A stretch of DNA of 64,000 nucleotides, from contig DATGLE010000066.1 of assembly GCA_035294325.1 (NCBI GenBank), positions 32,958 through 96,957 on the forward strand. The letters are read 5' to 3'. Below are positions 5,718 to 58,242 of this stretch, in pieces; positions within the stretch are counted from its first letter, which is position 1; every line of letters begins with the position of its first letter. Source of the DNA: Ktedonobacteraceae bacterium (GTDB lineage Bacteria > Chloroflexota > Ktedonobacteria > Ktedonobacterales > Ktedonobacteraceae). A program made the translations under genes and the position numbers. The notes under the pieces are model-generated. The model saw only the letters and a program-made list of their open reading frames with translations. It made no database searches and had not been told where the DNA came from.

Positions 5718-6370
5718 TGCTAAAGGGAGCAATAGCGCGTCGCTACGCCGGGGCGATCTTCGATCTTGCGCTCAAGCAAAATACGCTTGATCGCACCCTC
5801 GAAGACGTGAAAGAGATAGCGCAACTATTCGCACACCGCAAACTCGCCTATCTACTACGCGAGCCGAAAATCCCGGCGAAGCGCAAAGAGCAGGCCCTGC
5901 GCCAGGCGCTAGAATCCAGAGTCCTGCGCACGTCGCTCAATCTGGCCCTGCTGGTCGTCCAGCGCGAACTGGTTGACCTGATGCCCAATATCGCCAGAGA
6001 GTTAGAAATGCTTGTACTGGACTATAGGAACCAGGCCGTCGCCGAAGTGACGACGGCGATGCCCCTGGATCAGCGACAGAGCGCACGGGTAAAGCAGGCG
6101 CTCGAACAGAGAACAGGCAAAAATATCATCATGCAGACTCGGGTAGATCCCGCTATCCTGGGTGGGGTGGTAGCTCGCGTGGGAGATCAGGTCATCGATG
6201 GCAGTGTACGCTATCGTCTGACAGCCCTCCAGCAGCGATTGCTGTCAGGCGTCGCCAGCGCGAATATTGATTTTTTCGCTGAGGAAACCGCGCAGGCAGA
6301 CGGCGCCGGAAAAGCGGCCACACCGCCGCCCTCCACCGTCCCGAGTGCCAGTGTAAAGGATCGCGCCTAG
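5717..6370 (+). CDS. atpH: F0F1 ATP synthase subunit delta (OSCP)
   Basis: Begins MLKGAIARRYAGAIFDLA, the typical OSCP N-terminus. Start overlaps the atpF stop. Confidence 0.85.
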   Translation: MLKGAIARRYAGAIFDLALKQNTLDRTLEDVKEIAQLFAHRKLAYLLREPKIPAKRKEQALRQALESRVLRTSLNLALLVVQRELVDLMPNIARELEMLVLDYRNQAVAEVTTAMPLDQRQSARVKQALEQRTGKNIIMQTRVDPAILGGVVARVGDQVIDGSVRYRLTALQQRLLSGVASANIDFFAEETAQADGAGKAATPPPSTVPSASVKDRA

Positions 6371-11148: not shown

Positions 11149-12159
11149 TTAGAAATTGCTGCCGCCGCCACCTCCGGCGTCTCCGCCACCACCGCCAAAG
11201 TCTCCTCCTCCACCTCCACCCCAGTCTCCGCCAGCGCCACCGCCAAAGTCTCCCCCGCCGGAATCGCCGCCTCCGCCCCAATCAGCGCCGGCGCCACCGC
11301 CAAAGTCTCCTCCTCCAAAATTGCCCCCCTGGTCGCCCTGGTAATTCTCTCTCGCTTCGCGCTCACCCTGCTCTTTGCCCAGCTCGTAGCCCAGGAAACC
11401 GCCCGCCGCCGCGCCCAGCCCACCGGCGGCCCAGGGATTCATGCCCTGGTTGTAGCCGGGACCATAGTTGGGAGGATACGGCTGATTGTAGGGACCATAG
11501 GGTTGATTCGGGCCGTAGGGCGGGACGCCCCGGTTCCTGTTGAAGAAGCCCCCGAAACCGCCGAAGCCGGGGCGCGAACGGCGGCGCATAAAGGCGAAGA
11601 ACAGGATGCCAGCCAGCACCAGCAGGCCAATGCAGCACAGCGCGCCGTTGCCCAGACCAAACAGCCCGCCAGGCGCCGGCACAGCACCGCCGGAACCGCG
11701 CGAGCCGAGCGCGCCACGCAGCGAACTGAGCGCGCCAACTGTCGCACCGGTAAAATCGCGTCCATTGCTGCGCATGTCGCTGGCAAACGTGTTTGACGCC
11801 TGCTGGTAGTCGCTCGTCGTGAGCGGTACGCTGCTCCCGCCGGTAATATAGACATGCCCGGCCGTGTTGATCGCGATGACGATCATATTGCTGCTGGTAA
11901 CTTTACTCCTGGCTTCGGCATCAAAATTGGCGTTCGAGCCATTGTAGCCGTTGACAGTGTAAATGCTCACCGGGTACGGGAGCGATGACGCCTCCTGGCG
12001 CACCTGGGATTGATTGAGTACGCCGGCGTTATCATATATATTCACCGTGCTGGCGAATACGTTCACCGCAGCGCCGAGCAGCAGAGCCAGCGCGGTCATC
12101 AATGATAGCAGGCCAATGCCCAACCGTTTCATCAAAGTATCTCTGGTACTCATAGCCAC
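11149..12159 (-). CDS. TPM-domain (TLP18.3/Psb32/MOLO-1 family) membrane protein with a tandem Gly-rich C-terminal tail
   Basis: Signal/TM sequence, then the TPM-type YDNAGVL motif, a second TM helix (GALCCIGLLVLAGILFFAF), and C-terminal tandem repeats GGGDFGGGAGxDWGGGG. Confidence 0.65.
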   Translation of the reverse strand: MAMSTRDTLMKRLGIGLLSLMTALALLLGAAVNVFASTVNIYDNAGVLNQSQVRQEASSLPYPVSIYTVNGYNGSNANFDAEARSKVTSSNMIVIAINTAGHVYITGGSSVPLTTSDYQQASNTFASDMRSNGRDFTGATVGALSSLRGALGSRGSGGAVPAPGGLFGLGNGALCCIGLLVLAGILFFAFMRRRSRPGFGGFGGFFNRNRGVPPYGPNQPYGPYNQPYPPNYGPGYNQGMNPWAAGGLGAAAGGFLGYELGKEQGEREARENYQGDQGGNFGGGDFGGGAGADWGGGGDSGGGDFGGGAGGDWGGGGGGDFGGGGGDAGGGGGSNF

Positions 12160-14417: not shown

Positions 14418-14520
14418 CAGAGACGGGGGCAAGCCCCGTCTCTACATCTCTATGACGCCAGGCGCCGGAAAAATGTAGAGACGGGGCTTGCCCCCGTCTC
14501 TACATCTCTAAGGTACCCCG
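14418..14520. repeat. pair of inverted REP-like hairpin elements (gagacgggggcaagccccgtctctacatctct ... tgtagagacggggcttgcccccgtctctacatctct)
   Basis: Two copies in opposite orientation about 25 bp apart, just downstream of gpmI. The arrangement resembles BIME. Confidence 0.75.
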
Positions 14521-14627
14521 TCTTCTGCGAAAAACCTGCCCTGATCGCGGGACATGTGAACACGCCTGTTTATCCACAAGCTGGCAGTAACTATGTGGAT
14601 AACTTTCGATGAATGTGGATAAACAGG

Positions 14628-15653
14628 CTAGCCGATGCGTTCTACCAGAGTGATCGGCACAACCAATATCGATCCGTCCTCAAGGTGAAGACGAACAGCA
14701 CGAGCGCGAATGCCAGAGGTAAAGCGCTGCTGGTAGGTAAAGAGGTAGTCGATGACGCCTATCGCTCCCTCGTGCTCACCGCCGCAGACGCGCACCTGCG
14801 CGCCAATGGTCGGCGTGGGATCGAGGATCGTTTCGCGGTGGTTGCTCTGCTTTTCTGACGCTGGCAGTGAGATCACCAGTTCGGGAAAGATCCCCTGACG
14901 CACGGAGGTGACGCCGGAGAGCAGCACGATTTCTCCCTGGTACTGGCTCAGCAGGTTCATGATACGCGCCGGCATGGCAGCCGTGCCCAGCCCTTCCGTC
15001 AGCAGCAGCGTCAACTGCGGCAGGTGATCCTGCATTTCCTCCACATCGCTGCTATCAATCAACTGCACAAGATCGACACGTAGAAAGCCCTCCAGGTCAC
15101 GAGCCGAGATACTGCTGGCAACGACTCCAGCGACACCCGAACTCAGAGCCTGGCGCAAAAGCGCGAAATTGAGCGGGCCGGGCACAACCAGGATAGCGCC
15201 GGGCGGGATCGACGCTATCCCCTGGCCGCTGGCCTGCCACATCGTGAGTACGCCGGCAACCTGATTGCCGGCCCCGATGGTCCCCTGAATCAGATCGGCC
15301 TGTCCCTCGATGATAACTCCTCCTCGCCCGGTAATATCCACGACGCGACCATGCATACCGGCGGGGACAACCTCAGGGCCACCCTTTGCGGAACTGGCTC
15401 CATTATGGACATCTTTCAGTTCCATTTTAGCCGTCGAAGAAATGCCAGGCAGTGAGAGCCGGGAGGGCATTTGAACGGCCTCCTGAGCTGGATCCGTGCC
15501 TTCGGGGCGTTCCAGCCGGAGCACAGGCTGATCGGGCAAAACTTCCTGGCCCGGATAGACCAGCGGCACAGCCTTTGTCTTAGGCCCACCCGGCCAGCGC
15601 TCTCTGCGCACCTGCGTATGTGTGATAACCGACCACCCGAGCGGATAGGTCAT
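14628..15653 (-). CDS. hypothetical protein with two KOW/SH3-like beta-barrel segments; last gene of the 19098-14628 minus-strand cluster
   Basis: 341 aa. Has the motifs GMHGRVVDITGRGGVIIEG and GAQVRVCGGEHEGAIGVIDYL (G-x-V-x-V-x-GG-x-G-x-G-x-V). No confident family assignment. Confidence 0.45.
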   Translation of the reverse strand: MTYPLGWSVITHTQVRRERWPGGPKTKAVPLVYPGQEVLPDQPVLRLERPEGTDPAQEAVQMPSRLSLPGISSTAKMELKDVHNGASSAKGGPEVVPAGMHGRVVDITGRGGVIIEGQADLIQGTIGAGNQVAGVLTMWQASGQGIASIPPGAILVVPGPLNFALLRQALSSGVAGVVASSISARDLEGFLRVDLVQLIDSSDVEEMQDHLPQLTLLLTEGLGTAAMPARIMNLLSQYQGEIVLLSGVTSVRQGIFPELVISLPASEKQSNHRETILDPTPTIGAQVRVCGGEHEGAIGVIDYLFTYQQRFTSGIRARAVRLHLEDGSILVVPITLVERIG

Positions 15654-15668
15654 AGCAACTGGCCCCCT

Positions 15669-17582
15669 TTACGATCCTAACGCCTGTGCCCATTGGAGCA
15701 GGCGGGCCTGGCGCTCTGTTTCATCGGTAGGAAGGGTCAGCGGCCTCCCACGGGCATCAATGACCAGCCCGACCAGGCCGCCATCGATCTGCTCGGCGGC
15801 GCGGGCGCGCTCGCCCGGGCCAAGCCCGACATCGACATCAGGCGCCGGGAAAAGCGTCAGCGCCGCCTGCTCGTTGGGCCGCAGAGGAATAACCTCGATA
15901 GAACCGGCCATCACTTCAACGTTTACCTGCCGTCCATTGCTATACTCAAGCCCGACGCGCAGCGCGAGTTGCCCCGGCTGCATGGCGCCAAAGGGGATGA
16001 CGCAGGTTCCCAGGCGATGCGATACGGCGTCATTTTCATTGACCTGCACAGCCGTGATTGGCGCGACTGTCGCCACAGCGCCAAGCTGACCCACAAGCAT
16101 AGCCTGATCCAGCGCCAGCGAAGTTACACCGCGCGGCTGGAGCGCGTCTAATAGCATAAGCATGACCTGCCCATACCTGGGCGTGTGCGCAAGAATACCA
16201 CCGGTAGCCAGGATCAGATCCGACATCTGCCATTGAGGGCTATTCTTCCTTGCCATCTCCATCGTTACGGCGATGGCTTCGCGCGCGAATGCCTGGCACA
16301 GTTCCAGCTCTCGCGGACTGGTGGGGATCACATGCGGGTGCAGCATACGATTGAGAACGAACTGGCGTACCTCTTCTTCGGTCACAGTGAATGGCAGCCA
16401 GCGCGCGATACGCTGCAACCCTACCCTTTGCAGGACGGCGCCCACGCCCGGCCCCACGCCCAGACCGGAATTGACGACAGGGATAAATTCGCCCTGTTCG
16501 CCCGCCAGCATGACCGTCGTCGTCGCCCCGCCAGCGTCCACGGCGGTGACGTTCATCGCGTAGTGCTGCGCCAGGAACCGCACCAGGCTGCTCAACGAAG
16601 TAGCGGTAGCGACAGGCGCCGCGCTCGACCATGAGCGGAGGCGATCATAGCCGGGAAGACGCTGCATGACCTCCCGCTCGTGCAGCGCACCAACACCTAT
16701 GCTGACCGGTCCAAGCTGCGCCGGCGAGACCAGGGCATCAACGCGGCTCACCTCGGCGACTCCCTGCAACAGACGCCGCACCGCCTCTACGTACTGGGGT
16801 GCCCCGGCATATAGCACCGGGCACTGCTGCGCGGCAATATCCTGGGGCGGCACCCCGGCAGAGGCGCTGGCCCTGCGCCGCTCGCTGAGTTCGCGTGACG
16901 CATTTATCAACATCTGGCACGCTTCCTGCAACGGAGTGGGACCCGCCGGCCCATCGGCCATGCCCACCATCAGCGCGGCCTGAGGCTGGAATTCGCGGAA
17001 GCGCCCCAACTGGCGCTCCCACTCCAGAGCCATACGCTCCTGGCTCCATGCGCCGCCGATACCAGGCGCGGAGGTGGGGCCGGCCATTGTCCCTGCCCCC
17101 ACAGAGACGGGGGACTGCGTGGTCGCGGCTATATATGCGGGAGACGGGATGGCCTGCATTTCAGCATATAAGCCGGATATGGCCTGCGCCACAAGCCTCT
17201 CAAGCTCCTGACTCACAGCACCCAGTACCGCCAGGCGCAGCGGGCCGCCGGCGCTGATCGTTGCGATAAACAGGTCCACACCGTCCCCGTCCGGCTGCTC
17301 AGGAGAGATGATACGCCCGTCGGCAACGAAACGACGACCAGTAATAAACTCTATGACATTGATTGCCTGGATAACGCCCGCAGTAATATCCTCCTGCGGA
17401 GGTGCTGTCGTTGTCGGCGCTTCCCCACGCGCCATCAGACGATACTGGCCCTCAACCAGTCCAAAGAGCGAGACCTTTGTAAATATGGTCCCACAATCAG
17501 CGACGAGGAGAGAGCTGGCAGGAGCCGGATTGCGACTCTGGCGCGGAACCTGCTCTCCCCCCGGGTAGGGTCGTGTACTCAT
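15669..17582 (-). CDS. actin-fold (ASKHA) ATPase-like protein, GlmL/MutL-family-like
   Basis: N-terminal LLVADCGTIFTKVSL resembles the DxGxT(F/Y)TKV phosphate-1 signature of GlmL-type actin-like proteins. There is a second Gly-rich ATGGILAHTP segment. Start set at the internal MSTRPYP Met to avoid a 74-bp overlap with the upstream gene. Confidence 0.45.
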   Translation of the reverse strand: MSTRPYPGGEQVPRQSRNPAPASSLLVADCGTIFTKVSLFGLVEGQYRLMARGEAPTTTAPPQEDITAGVIQAINVIEFITGRRFVADGRIISPEQPDGDGVDLFIATISAGGPLRLAVLGAVSQELERLVAQAISGLYAEMQAIPSPAYIAATTQSPVSVGAGTMAGPTSAPGIGGAWSQERMALEWERQLGRFREFQPQAALMVGMADGPAGPTPLQEACQMLINASRELSERRRASASAGVPPQDIAAQQCPVLYAGAPQYVEAVRRLLQGVAEVSRVDALVSPAQLGPVSIGVGALHEREVMQRLPGYDRLRSWSSAAPVATATSLSSLVRFLAQHYAMNVTAVDAGGATTTVMLAGEQGEFIPVVNSGLGVGPGVGAVLQRVGLQRIARWLPFTVTEEEVRQFVLNRMLHPHVIPTSPRELELCQAFAREAIAVTMEMARKNSPQWQMSDLILATGGILAHTPRYGQVMLMLLDALQPRGVTSLALDQAMLVGQLGAVATVAPITAVQVNENDAVSHRLGTCVIPFGAMQPGQLALRVGLEYSNGRQVNVEVMAGSIEVIPLRPNEQAALTLFPAPDVDVGLGPGERARAAEQIDGGLVGLVIDARGRPLTLPTDETERQARLLQWAQALGS

Positions 17583-17607
17583 CTCACAGATATCCTTCTT
17601 TCCCGCA

Positions 17608-19098
17608 CTAGCGGAAGAACAAGTCGCGGATCGCCTCGAAAAATCCGCGCTTTGCAGGTTTAGCACCTGCTCCCTGACCACCGCTCATTCCCGCTGCCCC
17701 CGGTCCGGGCGGCATACCTGGCGCCTGAGGAGGATAGAGCGGGGATCCGGCCTGCGGTGGCATCGTATAACTGCTCTGGGACGCAGTTTGATATCCAGCG
17801 CCATAGCCCCCCGGTCCATATGGCTGTGGCGCGGGACCGCTCATTCCTGATGGGGTGGCCGGTATCTGGCCTGGCATACCCTGCGGCGCTGCTGCATTAT
17901 TGTAAGGATTGGATTGCGCCTGCGTTCCTGGCATAGAGCCTGCCTGTGAGGGGAAATTCGGCGCAGCCGAGGCCACGCCCAGCATCGAAGCGAACACATT
18001 AGCAGCCGCTGCGCTATCGCCGGCAGGATTCAATTCACTACGTGGACGGTTCGGCACGCGCACGTTCTCCACGCGTGGCGGTCCCGCGTACACACCTGAT
18101 TGCTGGCCTCCCGGCGATCCCTGCGGGGCCGCTCCAGGGGAGCGCAGCCAATCGGGCAAAGAGTTGGTATCGATGAAAGAAGAGGCCGCAAGCTTCCCTC
18201 CGCTTCCGGCAATATTGCCGCCGGGGGCGTTATTAACTGGCGGCGCCTGCTGGGATTGATCGGGCAGAGGAGACCGGGCGGGCGGAGGAGGAAACGCGCT
18301 CCCTTTTTGCTCCTGACCGGGTTGACGCAGCCATGACGGAAGCGAATCTACGTCGAGCAGCGAGGAAGCCGGCATGCCAGTCTGCCCCGACGCGGCTCCC
18401 TGCCCCCTGTTTGCTGGCGTTATCGGTGGTGCGGATATTTGCCCGTTCAACTGCGACATCCACGGAGGCAACGATTGCTCGTCTATAAGATCATGCGCCG
18501 AAAAGCCCTGTGCCGGCGGGGCTGCATTAAAAGGCGGCGCGGGCTGTGCGGACCGGACCGGCCCTTCGGGACGAGGAGTGGAGGCTGGCGGTTGCATGCT
18601 CTGCAACCACTCCGGCAGACTATCGGGCTGCACCAGGCTCGACGCCTGGATCCCGGATTGACTTCCCTCAGCGCCTGACTGGCCGGCCTCACGCATCCAG
18701 GCAGGAAGCGATTGCTCGTCAATTAACGACCTGGCGGCAAGCCCTTGCGACGCGAATCCTCCATCGGTATCAGGCCCCGGGAGAGAGGAGGAACGCAGCG
18801 CCACATGGGGGCCGGTAACAGCGCTCTCGCTGCCCATGCGCTCCGCCTGCATCCAGCTCGGCAGCGCACCTTCTTCGATTAGATCAGCCGCAGAAAAGTT
18901 CGCCGCCCCAGACGGGGGCGCCGCCGGACGACTACCCGGACGCAAGGATTCCAGCCAGGCCGGCAGTTCTGGCTGCCCCCGCGTTCCCATATGTGCACCA
19001 GCATCATTCGCACCCTTGCTTGAGAGCGGCGCGCCACACCTCTGACAATTTACAGCGCCATCCTGGGACCTGTACCCACAACTGTTACACGTAATCAC
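17608..19098 (-). CDS. zinc-ribbon protein with a Pro/Gln-rich disordered region carrying six [DE]xxSLPxW[LM] repeats and a C-terminal amphipathic helix
   Basis: N-terminal CNSCGYRSQDGAVNCQRCG (CxxC-x10-CxxC). Six repeats of the form LIEEGALPSWM, LIDEQSLPAWM, VQPDSLPEWL, LIDEQSLPPWM, LDVDSLPSWL, IDTNSLPDWL. C-terminus KRGFFEAIRDLFFR. Confidence 0.6.
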   Translation of the reverse strand: MITCNSCGYRSQDGAVNCQRCGAPLSSKGANDAGAHMGTRGQPELPAWLESLRPGSRPAAPPSGAANFSAADLIEEGALPSWMQAERMGSESAVTGPHVALRSSSLPGPDTDGGFASQGLAARSLIDEQSLPAWMREAGQSGAEGSQSGIQASSLVQPDSLPEWLQSMQPPASTPRPEGPVRSAQPAPPFNAAPPAQGFSAHDLIDEQSLPPWMSQLNGQISAPPITPANRGQGAASGQTGMPASSLLDVDSLPSWLRQPGQEQKGSAFPPPPARSPLPDQSQQAPPVNNAPGGNIAGSGGKLAASSFIDTNSLPDWLRSPGAAPQGSPGGQQSGVYAGPPRVENVRVPNRPRSELNPAGDSAAAANVFASMLGVASAAPNFPSQAGSMPGTQAQSNPYNNAAAPQGMPGQIPATPSGMSGPAPQPYGPGGYGAGYQTASQSSYTMPPQAGSPLYPPQAPGMPPGPGAAGMSGGQGAGAKPAKRGFFEAIRDLFFR

Positions 19099-19259
19099 TT
19101 TTGCTCCTCACTTTCGCCAGGGCTTAATTCAGGGCAGTGTACCACTCTTTTCCCGGCTTGACAACAGCGATAATCTACACCATAAGACACGCTGATATGA
19201 TACAATACACACGGTGTCAACAACCCGAAAGTACTATATAGCTAGCTTCAGGAGATCTC

Positions 19260-19721
19260 ATGCAAGAGCCGCCTTCAGATAAAATTAGACCGCCCCGGGC
19301 GCCACTGGCACCACTACACCTGACACTTCCACTCCCTCCCAGCATCAATGAACAATATGCAACCGTTGACGGTCGCCGCGTCAGCACTGTCGCCGCCCGT
19401 CGTTTCAAGCAGCAGGTACGCACAATACTGCGCGATCTCGAACGAGAGGGAATATTGCATGATGGATTGCGTAAACATCTCCGCGAGCACTATCTGGCAC
19501 TCTTCCTGGACTTTTACTTTACCACTCCGCTCAAACGAGACCTCGACGGCGGCCTCAAGATTACACAGGACGCGCTCTGCGAAGGGCTGGGATTGAACGA
19601 CAACCGCATCGTTGACATTCATCTAACGAAACACATCAACCCGTTGCACCCCCATCTTTATGTTGAACTGGAAGCGATCATCGACTGGCATTTCGACAAG
19701 GAGTACATTCTTCTTACCTGA
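19260..19721 (+). CDS. rusA: RusA-family Holliday-junction resolvase (phage-type)
   Basis: LPLPPSINEQYA (the PPS-N motif), and DLDGGLKITQDALCEGLGLNDNRIVDIHLTK matching the RusA catalytic Asp/Lys region. Confidence 0.65.
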   Translation: MQEPPSDKIRPPRAPLAPLHLTLPLPPSINEQYATVDGRRVSTVAARRFKQQVRTILRDLEREGILHDGLRKHLREHYLALFLDFYFTTPLKRDLDGGLKITQDALCEGLGLNDNRIVDIHLTKHINPLHPHLYVELEAIIDWHFDKEYILLT

Positions 19722-22664: not shown

Positions 22665-23450
22665 ATGAGGCGAGTTATGCAGTATAAAATCATCCACTTT
22701 CCCGGCGGCCAGCGCGCACGCGCGGTGAAAGCGTCCCCCGGCACGAGCGCCGATGCTGTTCTGGAGGCGCTCAGCATCGCGAAGCCAGAGGCGCTGCTGG
22801 TCCTGATAGGGGGCGCGAATAACCTGGAGCAGCAGCTCGTGGCCTCCCTCGTTCCATTATTCAGCCAGGGTATCGCGCCAGCAGCCGCGCATACCGGGGC
22901 AATGATTATCGACGGCGGCACATGTTCAGGCGTGATGGAGCTGATGGGCCAGGGAGTGGCCGCGCAGGGATACCCATCGACGCTGCTGGGCGTATCGGCT
23001 GCCGGCCTGGTAACGTACCCCGGCGCACCTGCTATTGAACGCCCCGACGATGCCACCGCGCTCGATCCCCATCACAGCCATTTCGTACTGGTGGATAGCC
23101 AGGAATGGGGCGGCGAGACAGAGATGCTCTTCGCGCTGGCCCGCGCCATTGCCAGGGACATTCCTGCCCTGGCAATCCTGGTTAACGGCGGCCCCATCGC
23201 CCGCAGCGAGGCATTGGAGGCTGTGCGCAGCAACTGGCCGCTGCTCGTCATCGAAGGTAGCGGGCGCGCAGCCGACGAAATCGCCACCCTCTGGCGCAAG
23301 CGTCCTGCCGCCGTCACGGACGAAAAGCAGCGCGAGATCATCGCGCGGGGCGCTATCTCCCTCTTCCCCCTGCACGGCGCCCCTGATGAACTGTTCCGGC
23401 GCATCGTTCGCCTGCTGGGAAAAGAGAGGGTTCAGGATGAGAGAGCTTAG
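22665..23450 (+). CDS. SLOG/LOG-like Rossmann-fold protein (DprA/LOG/Smf-like superfamily)
   Basis: Two Gly-rich phosphate-binding-like loops: LVLIGGANNLE ... IIDGGTCSGVMELM and ILVNGGPIARSEALE ... LLVIEGSGRAADEI. No catalytic residues could be assigned. Confidence 0.4.
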   Translation: MRRVMQYKIIHFPGGQRARAVKASPGTSADAVLEALSIAKPEALLVLIGGANNLEQQLVASLVPLFSQGIAPAAAHTGAMIIDGGTCSGVMELMGQGVAAQGYPSTLLGVSAAGLVTYPGAPAIERPDDATALDPHHSHFVLVDSQEWGGETEMLFALARAIARDIPALAILVNGGPIARSEALEAVRSNWPLLVIEGSGRAADEIATLWRKRPAAVTDEKQREIIARGAISLFPLHGAPDELFRRIVRLLGKERVQDERA

Positions 23451-24790
23451 GGAGCGACTTTATGATCCTCACTCCCACCTGCGCTGGCATCGAGAGGCGC
23501 CGGGGATATCGTGCTGACCTTCACCGCCCCTATCGCCTCCTCCTGCATCTCCATAGCGGCCTTTGCCTTCGTAACCATCGCGATCACCTCATCCAGATGC
23601 TCGATAGGATATTTACTCTCAGCCTCTTTTAAAAACGCGAGGCCATCGAGCACACTCTGAAAAACACCGGAGGCAGGCGTCAGCTCTATCGCCGCCTTGT
23701 AGGCAGCAACGGCGTCGCCCTTTTTGAGCACGAGTATTGCCATGCTCAGGTCATAGTAATCCCAGTAAGGTTCCTCCGAAGCTCTGGCGGCAATGCGTTT
23801 CTGCGCCGTCTCCATCGTCTGCTCGAAAGCCGGCAACGCAGTCTCTATGTCGCCTTCATGCAGCGCCAGGGCGGCAATGTTGCTGATGGCATAGGAGGAT
23901 TGAGGATTGGCCTTGCGGGCCAGCTTATAATAATCCAGCGCCAGGGCATACTGGTTCAAGCGGCGATAGGTCCCGGCAAGGCCAGCAATCGCCTCCTCAT
24001 AGTTGGGCAGCAGCTCGTTTGCCCGTCGGAAATGCTCTATAGCTCTGGTATATGCGCTAAAGCGTTTCTCCGCATCGTGTGTCCTTTGATACTCCCTATC
24101 AGCCTGAAGGCGATAAGCGAACCCCAGTTCCTTATGAGTTTGCGGTAGATCTGGATCAGCGGCGAGCGCGGCTGTAAGATGCTCGATGGACAGATCATAA
24201 GCGCCAATATCATTATAGATGCGGCCCAGAGCATAGTGAGCCTGCGGATCATGCTCCCGCAGCCGCAAGGCCGCCTGATACGCCTCGATAGCCTGGCCGT
24301 TTTTTCCCTTTTCTGCAAACTCGTTACCCAGAATCAGGAAGGCTATCGCCCGGCTGGTCTTCTCCACATCCCGCGTCAGCTTCTGGTGAAGTTCATCGAT
24401 CTCCTGCTTCTTTTTATCGATCTCTTTCTTCATTTCATCTATTTTTTCCAGGCTCCCGCTGCCCCTTTTCTCCAGATCTCGAAAGCTCCTGATACCGAAG
24501 TAGCCCAATATGCCAACCCCCACGCCTACCAGGATCGGAATGATGACAGAGAGATCATTAATCCAGCTCAGGAGGTTCGCCATCATTGCTGACTCTCGAT
24601 CAGCCTGGGACGCGGTTTGATTCGCTACAGTCACAGCCGTCGCCGCCTGATCGAGTATAGCATTGGCGTCGGGCGTCGGCGTGGGCTGCGCAACGCTCGC
24701 CCGTGCGCCAGAGGTAGACACTGCGAGCAACAGGATGGATAGGACGATGAGGAGCATTACGCTTACAATCAGAAACGGTTTGCGCGGCAT
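23447..24790 (-). CDS. membrane-anchored coiled-coil/TPR-repeat protein
   Basis: N-terminal TM helix (FLIVSVMLLIVLSILLLAV), second TM helix, a KKEIDKKKQEIDELHQKL coiled coil, then at least six TPR-like repeats (AIEAYQAALRL...). Start set at MPRKPF. Confidence 0.7.
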   Translation of the reverse strand: MPRKPFLIVSVMLLIVLSILLLAVSTSGARASVAQPTPTPDANAILDQAATAVTVANQTASQADRESAMMANLLSWINDLSVIIPILVGVGVGILGYFGIRSFRDLEKRGSGSLEKIDEMKKEIDKKKQEIDELHQKLTRDVEKTSRAIAFLILGNEFAEKGKNGQAIEAYQAALRLREHDPQAHYALGRIYNDIGAYDLSIEHLTAALAADPDLPQTHKELGFAYRLQADREYQRTHDAEKRFSAYTRAIEHFRRANELLPNYEEAIAGLAGTYRRLNQYALALDYYKLARKANPQSSYAISNIAALALHEGDIETALPAFEQTMETAQKRIAARASEEPYWDYYDLSMAILVLKKGDAVAAYKAAIELTPASGVFQSVLDGLAFLKEAESKYPIEHLDEVIAMVTKAKAAMEMQEEAIGAVKVSTISPAPLDASAGGSEDHKVAP

Positions 24791-24998
24791 AAGGTTCCCT
24801 CCCTGGACACGTAACAACATCAAACAATAATTACATGTAAAGGCATTATCCGCACTCATCATAGCACATCTTTGCCATTTTTACACCGTCTGAAAGAAAG
24901 CCAGGCGGCATAGCCCATATTGTCACAGTCGAAAGAACTGCCGTATAATTGAGATGAGTATAACACTACGATTTCGCTTTCAGGAGGCTCAGGTTCGT

Positions 24999-57986: not shown

Positions 57987-58080
57987 GATGTGCCCGGTTT
58001 TAAATATCAGTGGTGAAACTGTTGACAAACCGCCAAAGCTATGATATCTTAGTAACGCAAACCGGATATGACAGTTTAAG

Positions 58081-58155
58081 CGGGAGTGGCTCAGTGGTAG
58101 AGCGCTTCCTTGCCAAGGAAGATGTCGCGGGTTCGAATCCCGTCTCCCGCTCCAT
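58081..58155 (+). tRNA. tRNA-Gly (GCC)
   Basis: Cloverleaf readable directly: acceptor gcgggag/ctcccgc, anticodon loop ttGCCaa, T-loop ggttcgaatcc, encoded CCA. Confidence 0.9.
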
Positions 58156-58168
58156 TGCCCCATTCAAG

Positions 58169-58242
58169 GCGACGTAGCCAAGTGGTAAGGCACGGCTCTG
58201 CAAAAGCTGCACCAGCGGTTCGAATCCGCTCGTCGCCTCCAG
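58169..58242 (+). tRNA. tRNA-Cys (GCA)
   Basis: Acceptor ggcgacg/cgtcgcc, anticodon loop ctGCAaa, T-loop ggttcgaatcc, encoded CCA. Confidence 0.9.

Follow-up and report, generated by a model that had tools for sequence, protein, structure and literature searches.

A GlmL-family protein encoded with a three-domain partner and a putative multivalent membrane adaptor in a Ktedonobacteraceae bacterium

The stretch of DNA analyzed here, a window of 64,000 nucleotides from an uncultured Ktedonobacteraceae bacterium (Chloroflexota), contains a cluster of three genes, P1, P2, and P3, which the window's list of open reading frames (ORFs) places head to tail on the minus strand, in agreement with an initial annotation made from the sequence. 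P1 (17608..19098) encodes a 496-amino-acid (aa) zinc-ribbon protein that is predicted to be disordered, carries multiple copies of a tryptophan-containing short motif (W motif), and ends in an amphipathic helix. P2 (15669..17582) encodes a 637-aa protein of the GlmL/MutL family (ASKHA) with an additional C-terminal domain of ~120 aa, and P3 (14628..15653) encodes a 341-aa partner predicted to consist of a reduced barrel-sandwich hybrid, a swivelling beta/beta/alpha domain, and a KOW barrel. All features of these genes described below lie on the minus strand.

The P1 start codon is GTG, with a GAGGAG ribosome-binding site 6 nt upstream. The intergenic gaps measure 25 bp between P1 and P2, one less than annotated initially, and 15 bp between P2 and P3. 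Consensus scans placed a promoter-like site (TTGTCA-17-TACACT with TG; 19136..19164, minus strand) 5' of P1 and two terminator-like hairpins (14477..14554, minus strand) 3' of P3, and together with the short gaps these predicted signals make a single operon of P1, P2, and P3 the best explanation of the arrangement. The ATG at 17582 was taken as the start of P2 because all orthologues are 620-640 aa long and align over 100% of the 637-aa form; a longer form of 670 aa with a GTG start, overlapping P1, was rejected on the same grounds. Public records contain proteins with full or 97% identity to P3 and P2, under the names 'hypothetical protein' and 'glutamate mutase L'.

The Pfam model for MutL/GlmL (PF13941) matched P2 over nearly its full length (E = 8.1e-42, 144 bits with a cut-off of 27, model positions 2-448 of 450), which bears out the GlmL-type protein of ~640 aa described previously. 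This was the sole Pfam match, and no match to filament-forming actin-like families (Actin, MreB, FtsA, ParM, or MamK) was found at E<=1. Against the NCBIfam model for GlmL (NF040745) the window protein scored 21.9 bits with a cut-off of 475, and TIGR01319 gave no match. Relatives with canonical motifs (see below) reached E = 1e-71 with the NCBIfam GlmL model, still under all three cut-offs (242 vs 475; 188 vs 204), and showed weak matches to Hydantoinase_A, Hydant_A_N, and BcrAD_BadFG. Sequence searches of the PDB with P2, a P2 profile, and a canonical relative gave nothing meaningful. An exhaustive search of sequences clustered at 50% identity identified 1877 representatives of the P2 family at E<1e-3, including 514 at E<1e-30. 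Most of them are ~580-610 aa long and extend ~120 aa beyond the 450-position Pfam model, and this extra C-terminal domain bears the family-wide signature G[LIV][IV][IV]D[AT]RGRP. In the window protein the signature reads GLVIDARGRP (aa 605-614; 15741..15770), where D609, R611, G612, R613, and P614 are invariant in alignment A2, and this peptide was used as the pattern for the species-level genome scan described below.

Three motifs mark the putative nucleotide site of P2. The phosphate-1 motif DCGTIFTK (aa 29-36; 17475..17498), already noted in the initial annotation, aligns with DCGSTTTK of canonical relatives, and the adenosine-type motif ATGGILAH (aa 459-466; 16185..16208) aligns with GSGGVLSHAP. 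The phosphate-2 motif DAGGATTT (aa 349-356; 16515..16538) is degenerate, with Thr replacing the terminal Asp of DIGGATTD. An alignment of P2 from 80 of the loci with enough sequence, together with 12 fusion proteins, splits the family into two subfamilies. The canonical subfamily (Armatimonadota, Poribacteria, Eisenbacteria, and the fusion proteins) has the motifs DCGSTTTK / DIGGATTDVFS / GSGGVLSHAP, whereas every Chloroflexota P2, the window protein included, is without the terminal acidic residue of phosphate-2 (DxGGxTxD). A canonical phosphate-2 motif was found in 0 of the 56 Chloroflexota loci and in all 26 loci of other phyla. The corresponding position in Hsp70 and FtsA is the Asp of the DxGGGTxD motif, which is involved in catalysis. 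With this residue lost, the window P2 may thus retain nucleotide binding, while its hydrolysis is probably weakened. P2 is probably a nucleotide-binding switch or slow ATPase and not a fast hydrolase.

P3 is predicted to contain an N-terminal hybrid barrel, formed by aa ~8-50 and 94-140 and interrupted by a disordered loop (57-90). A swivelling domain (~150-265) and a C-terminal KOW/SH3-like barrel (284-340; 14634..14804), the latter assigned to PF00467, are predicted to follow. Among 22 diverse P3 relatives, Pfam matches were obtained for RnfC_N (14/22, best E = 9e-7), KOW (12/22, best 4e-5), Biotin_lipoyl (5/22), and NQRA_N (4/22), the KOW match of the window P3 itself being sub-threshold. 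An AlphaFold2 model built from a diverse alignment of 58 sequences had a mean predicted local distance difference test score (pLDDT) of 78.4 and a predicted template-modelling score (pTM) of 0.69, with loop 57-90 disordered; an earlier model from 35 close homologues (pLDDT 56.7) was discarded. Foldseek confirmed the KOW barrel of the model (TM-score 0.69-0.85) and found no full-length analogue of P3 in the PDB, where a sequence search also returned noise only. Of the two KOW/SH3-like barrels proposed previously, the C-terminal one was thus retained and the remainder of the protein is better described as hybrid barrel and swivelling domain. The hybrid domain of the window P3 is reduced, the disordered loop replacing part of it, and it differs in this from the N-terminal barrel-sandwich hybrids of NqrA and RnfC; nor do the operon partners match any of the Rnf/Nqr membrane subunit families. 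The swivelling domain contains a TEGxG motif (aa 219-223; 14985..14999) in which T219, E220, G221, and G223 are invariant in alignment A3 (22 diverse sequences); alignment A4 (58 sequences) keeps T219, G221, and G223 without exception and E220 with few. Unlike the mobile domains of phosphoenolpyruvate (PEP) utilizers (Enzyme I, rifampin phosphotransferase, and the C-terminal domain of pyruvate kinase), it has no conserved His and is therefore not a phosphohistidine or phosphotransfer domain, and none of the 22 P3 family members matched the PEP-utilizer model PF00391.

At the N-terminus of P1, Cys 4, 7, 18, and 21 form the Cys4 zinc ribbon previously predicted (aa 2-25; 19024..19095), and its CxxC-x10-CxxC pattern is conserved in the Ktedonobacteria orthologues. 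The zinc-ribbon models considered were PF13248, PF13240, and PF12773. The Pfam match of the window ribbon lies below the cut-off (Zn_ribbon_3, E = 0.005, 16.7 bits vs 27), and the ribbons of P1-like proteins from Anaerolineae and of a fusion protein from Chloroflexia (L080, see below) exceed the Pfam cut-offs (DZR/Zn_Ribbon_1). The P1 orthologue of Ktedonosporobacter rubrisoli (CP035758) is annotated publicly as beginning at position 6196 of the extracted locus (L001), which excludes an in-frame zinc ribbon, ITCNQCGNLVPAGAVQCQKCG, located directly upstream (L001:6100-6195).

The zinc ribbon is followed by an array of LPxW[LM] motifs (18142..19002) in a region of low complexity, P, G, S, Q, and A making up 64% of residues 31-480. 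The motif had been recognized in the initial annotation as six evenly spaced copies. The motif itself is real, but we counted seven copies, at aa 45, 79, 131, 161, 210, 253, and 314 (cores at 18952-18966, 18850-18864, 18694-18708, 18604-18618, 18457-18471, 18328-18342, and 18145-18159), and their spacing is uneven (34, 52, 30, 49, 43, and 61 aa). Every Trp of P1 (7/7) sits within such a motif, shuffled versions of P1 contained at most two copies (100,000 shuffles), and a single further match was found elsewhere in the window (47,445 aa of six-frame ORF segments). Across Ktedonobacteria P1 proteins, 228 instances define an extended unit of ~17 residues, G-[FLI]-S-A-[SA]-S-L-I-D-x-x-[AS]-L-P-x-W-[ML]-[RQK], and the first copy of the window protein, QPELPAWLESLR, resembles the simpler form E-[LVI]-P-D-W-L-x-x-L-x-P of other Chloroflexota. 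In 32 orthologues, identity to the window P1 was 67% in the motif windows, 51% in the zinc ribbon, and 60% in the C-terminal 16 residues, against 33% elsewhere. No tandem repeat underlies the motifs at the DNA level in the window, and an origin of the window copies by DNA-level repetition was rejected for that reason; the copies are thus maintained at the peptide level. To judge from this pattern of identity, the W motifs are under selection, and the conservation of the motif in orthologues predicted earlier was borne out, with multivalency kept. In the Ktedonosporobacter P1, an expanded 81-bp unit gives rise to 11 copies of the motif.

Two further segments of P1 are conserved. A single-copy island (aa 342-383, RVENVRVPNRPRSE...AANVFASMLGVAS; 17950..18075), absent from the initial annotation, is nearly invariant in 32 Ktedonobacteria P1 proteins, among which its consensus is RVENVRVP[SN]RPR...AANVFASMLGVAS and its character moderately hydrophobic. 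The island may serve for docking, be left over from the transmembrane helix found in Anaerolineae, or lie on the membrane as a peripheral segment. The C-terminus forms a basic amphipathic helix, KRGFFEAIRDLFFR (17611..17652), a putative membrane-targeting sequence that was assigned from its hydrophobic moment and its conservation. As had been proposed, the helix is strongly amphipathic, RGFFEAIRDLF having a helical hydrophobic moment of 0.81, the maximum within P1, and the orthologues keep K[RK]G[FL][FL]xxI[RL]xxF at their C-termini. It shares with helices of the MinD/FtsA type its C-terminal position, basic and aromatic residues, high moment, and conservation, and membrane binding is predicted on these grounds.

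A genome scan using one genome per species identified P2 relatives in at least 582 species-level genomes of Chloroflexota, Armatimonadota, Eisenbacteria, and Poribacteria. The gene context was analyzed in the best-scoring 80 loci of these, spanning Ktedonobacteria, Anaerolineae, Caldilineae, Chloroflexia, Armatimonadota, Eisenbacteria, and Poribacteria, and genes encoding at least two [LIMVA]PxW[LMIVF] motifs were counted as P1-like, the majority of which also begin with a zinc ribbon. In Chloroflexota, a P3-like gene adjoined P2 in 54 of 56 loci and a P1-like gene lay upstream in 44 (31/34 in core Ktedonobacteria, 4/5 in deep Ktedonobacterales, and 9/17 in other Chloroflexota). P1-like genes were absent from the 26 other loci (0/26), all with canonical phosphate-2 motifs, where P3-like genes adjoined P2 in 4 of 4 loci from Eisenbacteria, 2 of 9 from Armatimonadota, 0 of 9 from Poribacteria, and 0 of 4 unclassified loci. 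At the level of clades, P1 presence and the degenerate phosphate-2 motif are thus perfectly correlated. The Ktedonobacteria share their entire neighborhood by synteny (a RusA-like gene, DUF92, iPGM, and ATP synthase), so that adjacency of P1 and P2 is by itself weak evidence within this class. The synteny of the trio, however, reaches Anaerolineae at ~35% P2 identity, where P1-like genes remain 5' of P2 although the remaining neighborhood differs. The Anaerolineae P1-like proteins have a double zinc ribbon, 2-21 motifs, and a C-terminal transmembrane helix in place of the amphipathic helix. Across P1-like proteins, the number of W motifs ranges from 2 to 40 or more; 21 occur in a protein of 1,126 aa (L067:1906-5286), and a tail-anchored protein of 2,599 aa from Anaerolineae (GCA_023151115.1; L083:1-7390, plus strand) has at least 40 [LIMVA]PxW[LMIVF] motifs within the 2,462 aa that its locus covers.

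Gene fusions point in the same direction. Two proteins of ~1000 aa from other bacteria (P0293 and P0355) carry a P3-like region C-terminal to P2 (BLASTP E = 9e-18 and 3e-17). In the Chloroflexia locus L080, a single ORF of 821 aa combines a double zinc ribbon, a linker with TPAWLEDLPP, and a MutL domain, with P3 as the next gene, and P0268 consists of P2 with a tail containing three [IM]PPWLL motifs. Synteny and fusions, which agree with the co-conservation predicted in the initial annotation, support the trio as a real, conserved functional unit of Chloroflexota. Membrane anchors also occur in P2 proteins themselves. Eight representatives possess a low-complexity tail that terminates in KRGFFRKK, KRGWFGRKKK, KRGLFGFGKKR, or similar, while P0275, P0284, and P0305 have transmembrane anchors N-terminal to the MutL domain, two of them with large ectodomains ahead of P2 (Peptidase_M1, E = 7e-19, or bacterial TSP3 repeats). 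The latter layouts suggest signalling or coupling across the membrane, and the predicted anchors together support membrane tethering through a long flexible region as a recurring property of the P2 family.

Outside Ktedonobacteria, P2 and P3 are encoded together with a set of predicted membrane proteins. In Anaerolineae and Chloroflexia the gene order is f5 - f4 - f6 - P1-like - f2 - P2 - P3 (L038, L053, L063, L067, L077, and L081), and in Eisenbacteria f11 - f5 - P2 - P3 - f4 - f6 - (transmembrane-globular-transmembrane protein) - f2 (L043, L050, L052, and L073). Family f4 corresponds to Pfam DUF6754 (PF20539, E = 8e-110), the multi-pass membrane proteins of f2 and f6 measure about 205 and 225 aa, and the membrane proteins of f5 and f11 are small; no function has been named for any of the five families. 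Glycine-cleavage genes, which precede the module in Eisenbacteria, were weighed as a hint at its function and dismissed as lineage-specific neighbors. A role in anti-phage defence was likewise dropped, as PADLOC matched neither the three window proteins nor their relatives from Eisenbacteria.

We propose, with about even confidence, that P1 acts as a multivalent tether or scaffold which brings a nucleotide-switch complex of P2 and P3 to the membrane, this complex being derived from the wider system of DUF6754 and other membrane partners. P2 and P3 would form an obligate pair, presumably a physical complex, in which an ASKHA nucleotide-binding core works with the hybrid-barrel, swivelling, and KOW domains of its partner. 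P1 would serve as a cytoplasmic scaffold, disordered for the most part and attached to the membrane through predicted binding of its C-terminal amphipathic helix. Its W motifs and island would gather multiple P2-P3 units, or their client, on the cytoplasmic side of the membrane; both a reader of the W motifs and a biochemical output are presumed. The ancestral form (Eisenbacteria, Armatimonadota, and other phyla) would have a canonical ATPase site and work with DUF6754 and several multi-pass membrane proteins, and the Chloroflexota branch would have lost the acidic residue of phosphate-2 and acquired the P1 adaptor. The clade-level coincidence of these two events suggests a shift from an ATP-hydrolysing engine to a nucleotide-dependent switch or assembly.

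Several observations weigh against this proposal. Searches with hidden Markov models for f2, f4, f5, f6, and f11 found none of these families in the 64-kb window, and none in the Ktedonobacteria loci up to a distance of 6 kb from P2, so that the link of the window genes to the wider system is by homology only. The best-scoring loci on which the comparison is based are biased towards relatives of the query, P2 stands without an adjoining P3 in Poribacteria and most Armatimonadota, and the ASKHA fold of P2 is inferred from membership in PF13941. Finally, the W motifs of P0268 and L080 lie in cis with P2, an arrangement that agrees no less well with a receptor other than P2. As receptor of the W motifs, P3, the P1 island, and an outside partner are as possible as P2.

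If the receptor is an outside partner, possibly polymeric or multivalent, the W motifs would recruit it, with the zinc ribbon or the island of P1 serving as the docking point of P2-P3. We regard this as rather improbable but consider it the most serious competitor, as W motifs in cis are expected if the motif targets P2 elsewhere, a nearly invariant single-copy island suits 1:1 docking, and the motif follows the pattern acidic-aliphatic-Pro-x-aromatic-Leu/Met-basic. The W motifs have a tentative resemblance to the C-terminal peptide of FtsZ, D-[IL]-P-x-[FY]-L-[RK], which is read by FtsA, SepF, ZipA, and others. No candidate receptor was identified, however; the window contains no FtsZ or FtsA gene, a regular-expression search of it gave no FtsZ signature, canonical ASKHA phosphate-2 motif, or peptide resembling the FtsZ C-terminus, and the P2 representatives with KRGFF-ended tails have no W motifs. 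The same resemblance allows the short Pro-x-aromatic-Leu peptide to be seen as a possible ligand of an actin-fold protein, as the FtsZ peptide is of FtsA, and the basic-aromatic amphipathic C-terminus of P1 following a long flexible linker is reminiscent of the targeting helices of FtsA and MinD. Unlike in FtsA/FtsZ, tether and motif are here located on a separate scaffold with 7 to 40 or more repeats, and P2 falls outside the FtsA family. A membrane-organizing system in which anchored, disordered P1 uses these FtsZ-tail-like motifs to nucleate or cluster an ATP-binding but hydrolysis-impaired P2 (with P3) into a polymer, lattice, or condensate at the cytoplasmic membrane of Chloroflexota appears unlikely to us; if true, an enzyme-like machine of the GlmL family would have given rise to a new kind of cytoskeletal or scaffold element in bacteria. 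Still less probable is a new bacterial cytoskeleton in the strict sense, with P2 as a filament-forming actin-like protein and P1 as membrane anchor and nucleator engaging one protomer per motif. The ASKHA family membership of P2, the membrane tether with its long motif arrays, and a weakened hydrolysis site that could stabilize a polymer speak for such filaments, and motif arrays in a disordered protein could by analogy each engage one actin-fold protomer, as in the tandem WH2-repeat nucleators Spire, Cobl, and VopL/VopF, to which P1 has no sequence relationship. The cytoskeletal module envisaged in the initial annotation is disfavored, however, by the position of P2 in the GlmL/hydantoinase-like branch, outside Actin, MreB, FtsA, and ParM, and the obligate P3 and the membrane-protein partners of relatives look enzyme- or transport-type. 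No member of the GlmL/hydantoinase-like branch is known to polymerize.

A reactivation-chaperone role is ascribed to GlmL/MutL (PMC4682846), and P2 could be an ordinary protein of this kind serving a coenzyme-B12-dependent mutase. The near-full-length MutL match with its phosphate-1 and adenosine motifs and the public name favor such a role, as does the swivelling domain of P3, which resembles that of the large subunit of the diol-dehydratase reactivase, DdrA (PDB 2d0o); P2 and P3 together have the same domain inventory of ATPase plus swivelling domain. We nevertheless consider it very improbable. P2 scores far below the NCBIfam cut-offs, even its canonical relatives stay under them, it carries the extra domain with the invariant IDARGRP, and in Chloroflexota it has lost the phosphate-2 Asp. 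No Pfam families for a mutase, such as the glutamate mutase encoded by glmS/glmE, or for B12 binding were found among the annotated neighbors (L001, L002, and L083) or among the families enriched near P2 in 48 distant loci; the partners here are P3, P1, and membrane proteins. In contrast to DdrA, the swivelling domain is located on a separate or C-terminally fused polypeptide and flanked by hybrid and KOW barrels, no DdrB-like small subunit or B12 enzyme was seen, and the system appears to be membrane associated. The role implied by the label 'glutamate mutase L' is thus contradicted by scores, gene context, and architecture. That P1 merely adjoins P2-P3 by chance, the two being functionally unrelated, is scarcely credible. 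The general synteny of the Ktedonobacteria neighborhood would allow it, but P1-like genes stay 5' of P2 in Anaerolineae, the fusion of zinc ribbon, W motif, and P2 in L080 and the W-motif tail of P0268 join the elements in one chain, and P1 occurs only in the clade with degenerate P2.

Whichever partner reads the W motifs, the P2 family is large and bears a public name that the present evidence does not support, and the conserved P2-P3 pair, its wider set of membrane partners, and the Chloroflexota-specific adaptor P1 are defined here. Within the library searched, no paper mentioned PF13941, DUF6754, or the W motif in such a context, and no published description of the module was found; it joins an ASKHA protein of the GlmL family to partners not described before and to an adaptor that is multivalent. 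The architecture of P1 is unusual in that a disordered, tail-anchored protein brings together a conserved zinc ribbon, a short motif in many copies, and a putative membrane anchor. P2 would illustrate how an ASKHA ATPase that was once active becomes a probable pseudo-ATPase or switch as a multivalent scaffold is gained, and the trio provides a testable entry into an abundant dark-matter system.

Some neighboring features of the window were also recorded. A RusA-like Holliday-junction resolvase gene (19260-19721, plus strand; Pfam E = 1.3e-5) is divergent from P1, and its position, as well as that of the neighboring gene for a DUF92 membrane protein, is conserved in Ktedonosporobacter and Dictyobacter. 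It is thus a stable chromosomal neighbor and not prophage cargo. Downstream of the cluster, a gene at 11149-12159 (minus strand) encodes a protein of 336 aa with a signal or transmembrane segment, a globular domain that has no Pfam match, a second transmembrane segment, and a C-terminal Gly-rich tail of repeated GGGDFGGG units, and a protein of similar size is encoded at the same position in Dictyobacter and Ktedonosporobacter. A gene for a SLOG/LSDAT_prok domain protein (22665-23450, plus strand; Pfam E = 5.5e-54) is convergent with that of a membrane-anchored TPR protein (23447-24862, minus strand), the two overlapping by a few bases. Adjacent genes for tRNA-Gly(GCC) and tRNA-Cys(GCA) are located at 58080-58241 on the plus strand.

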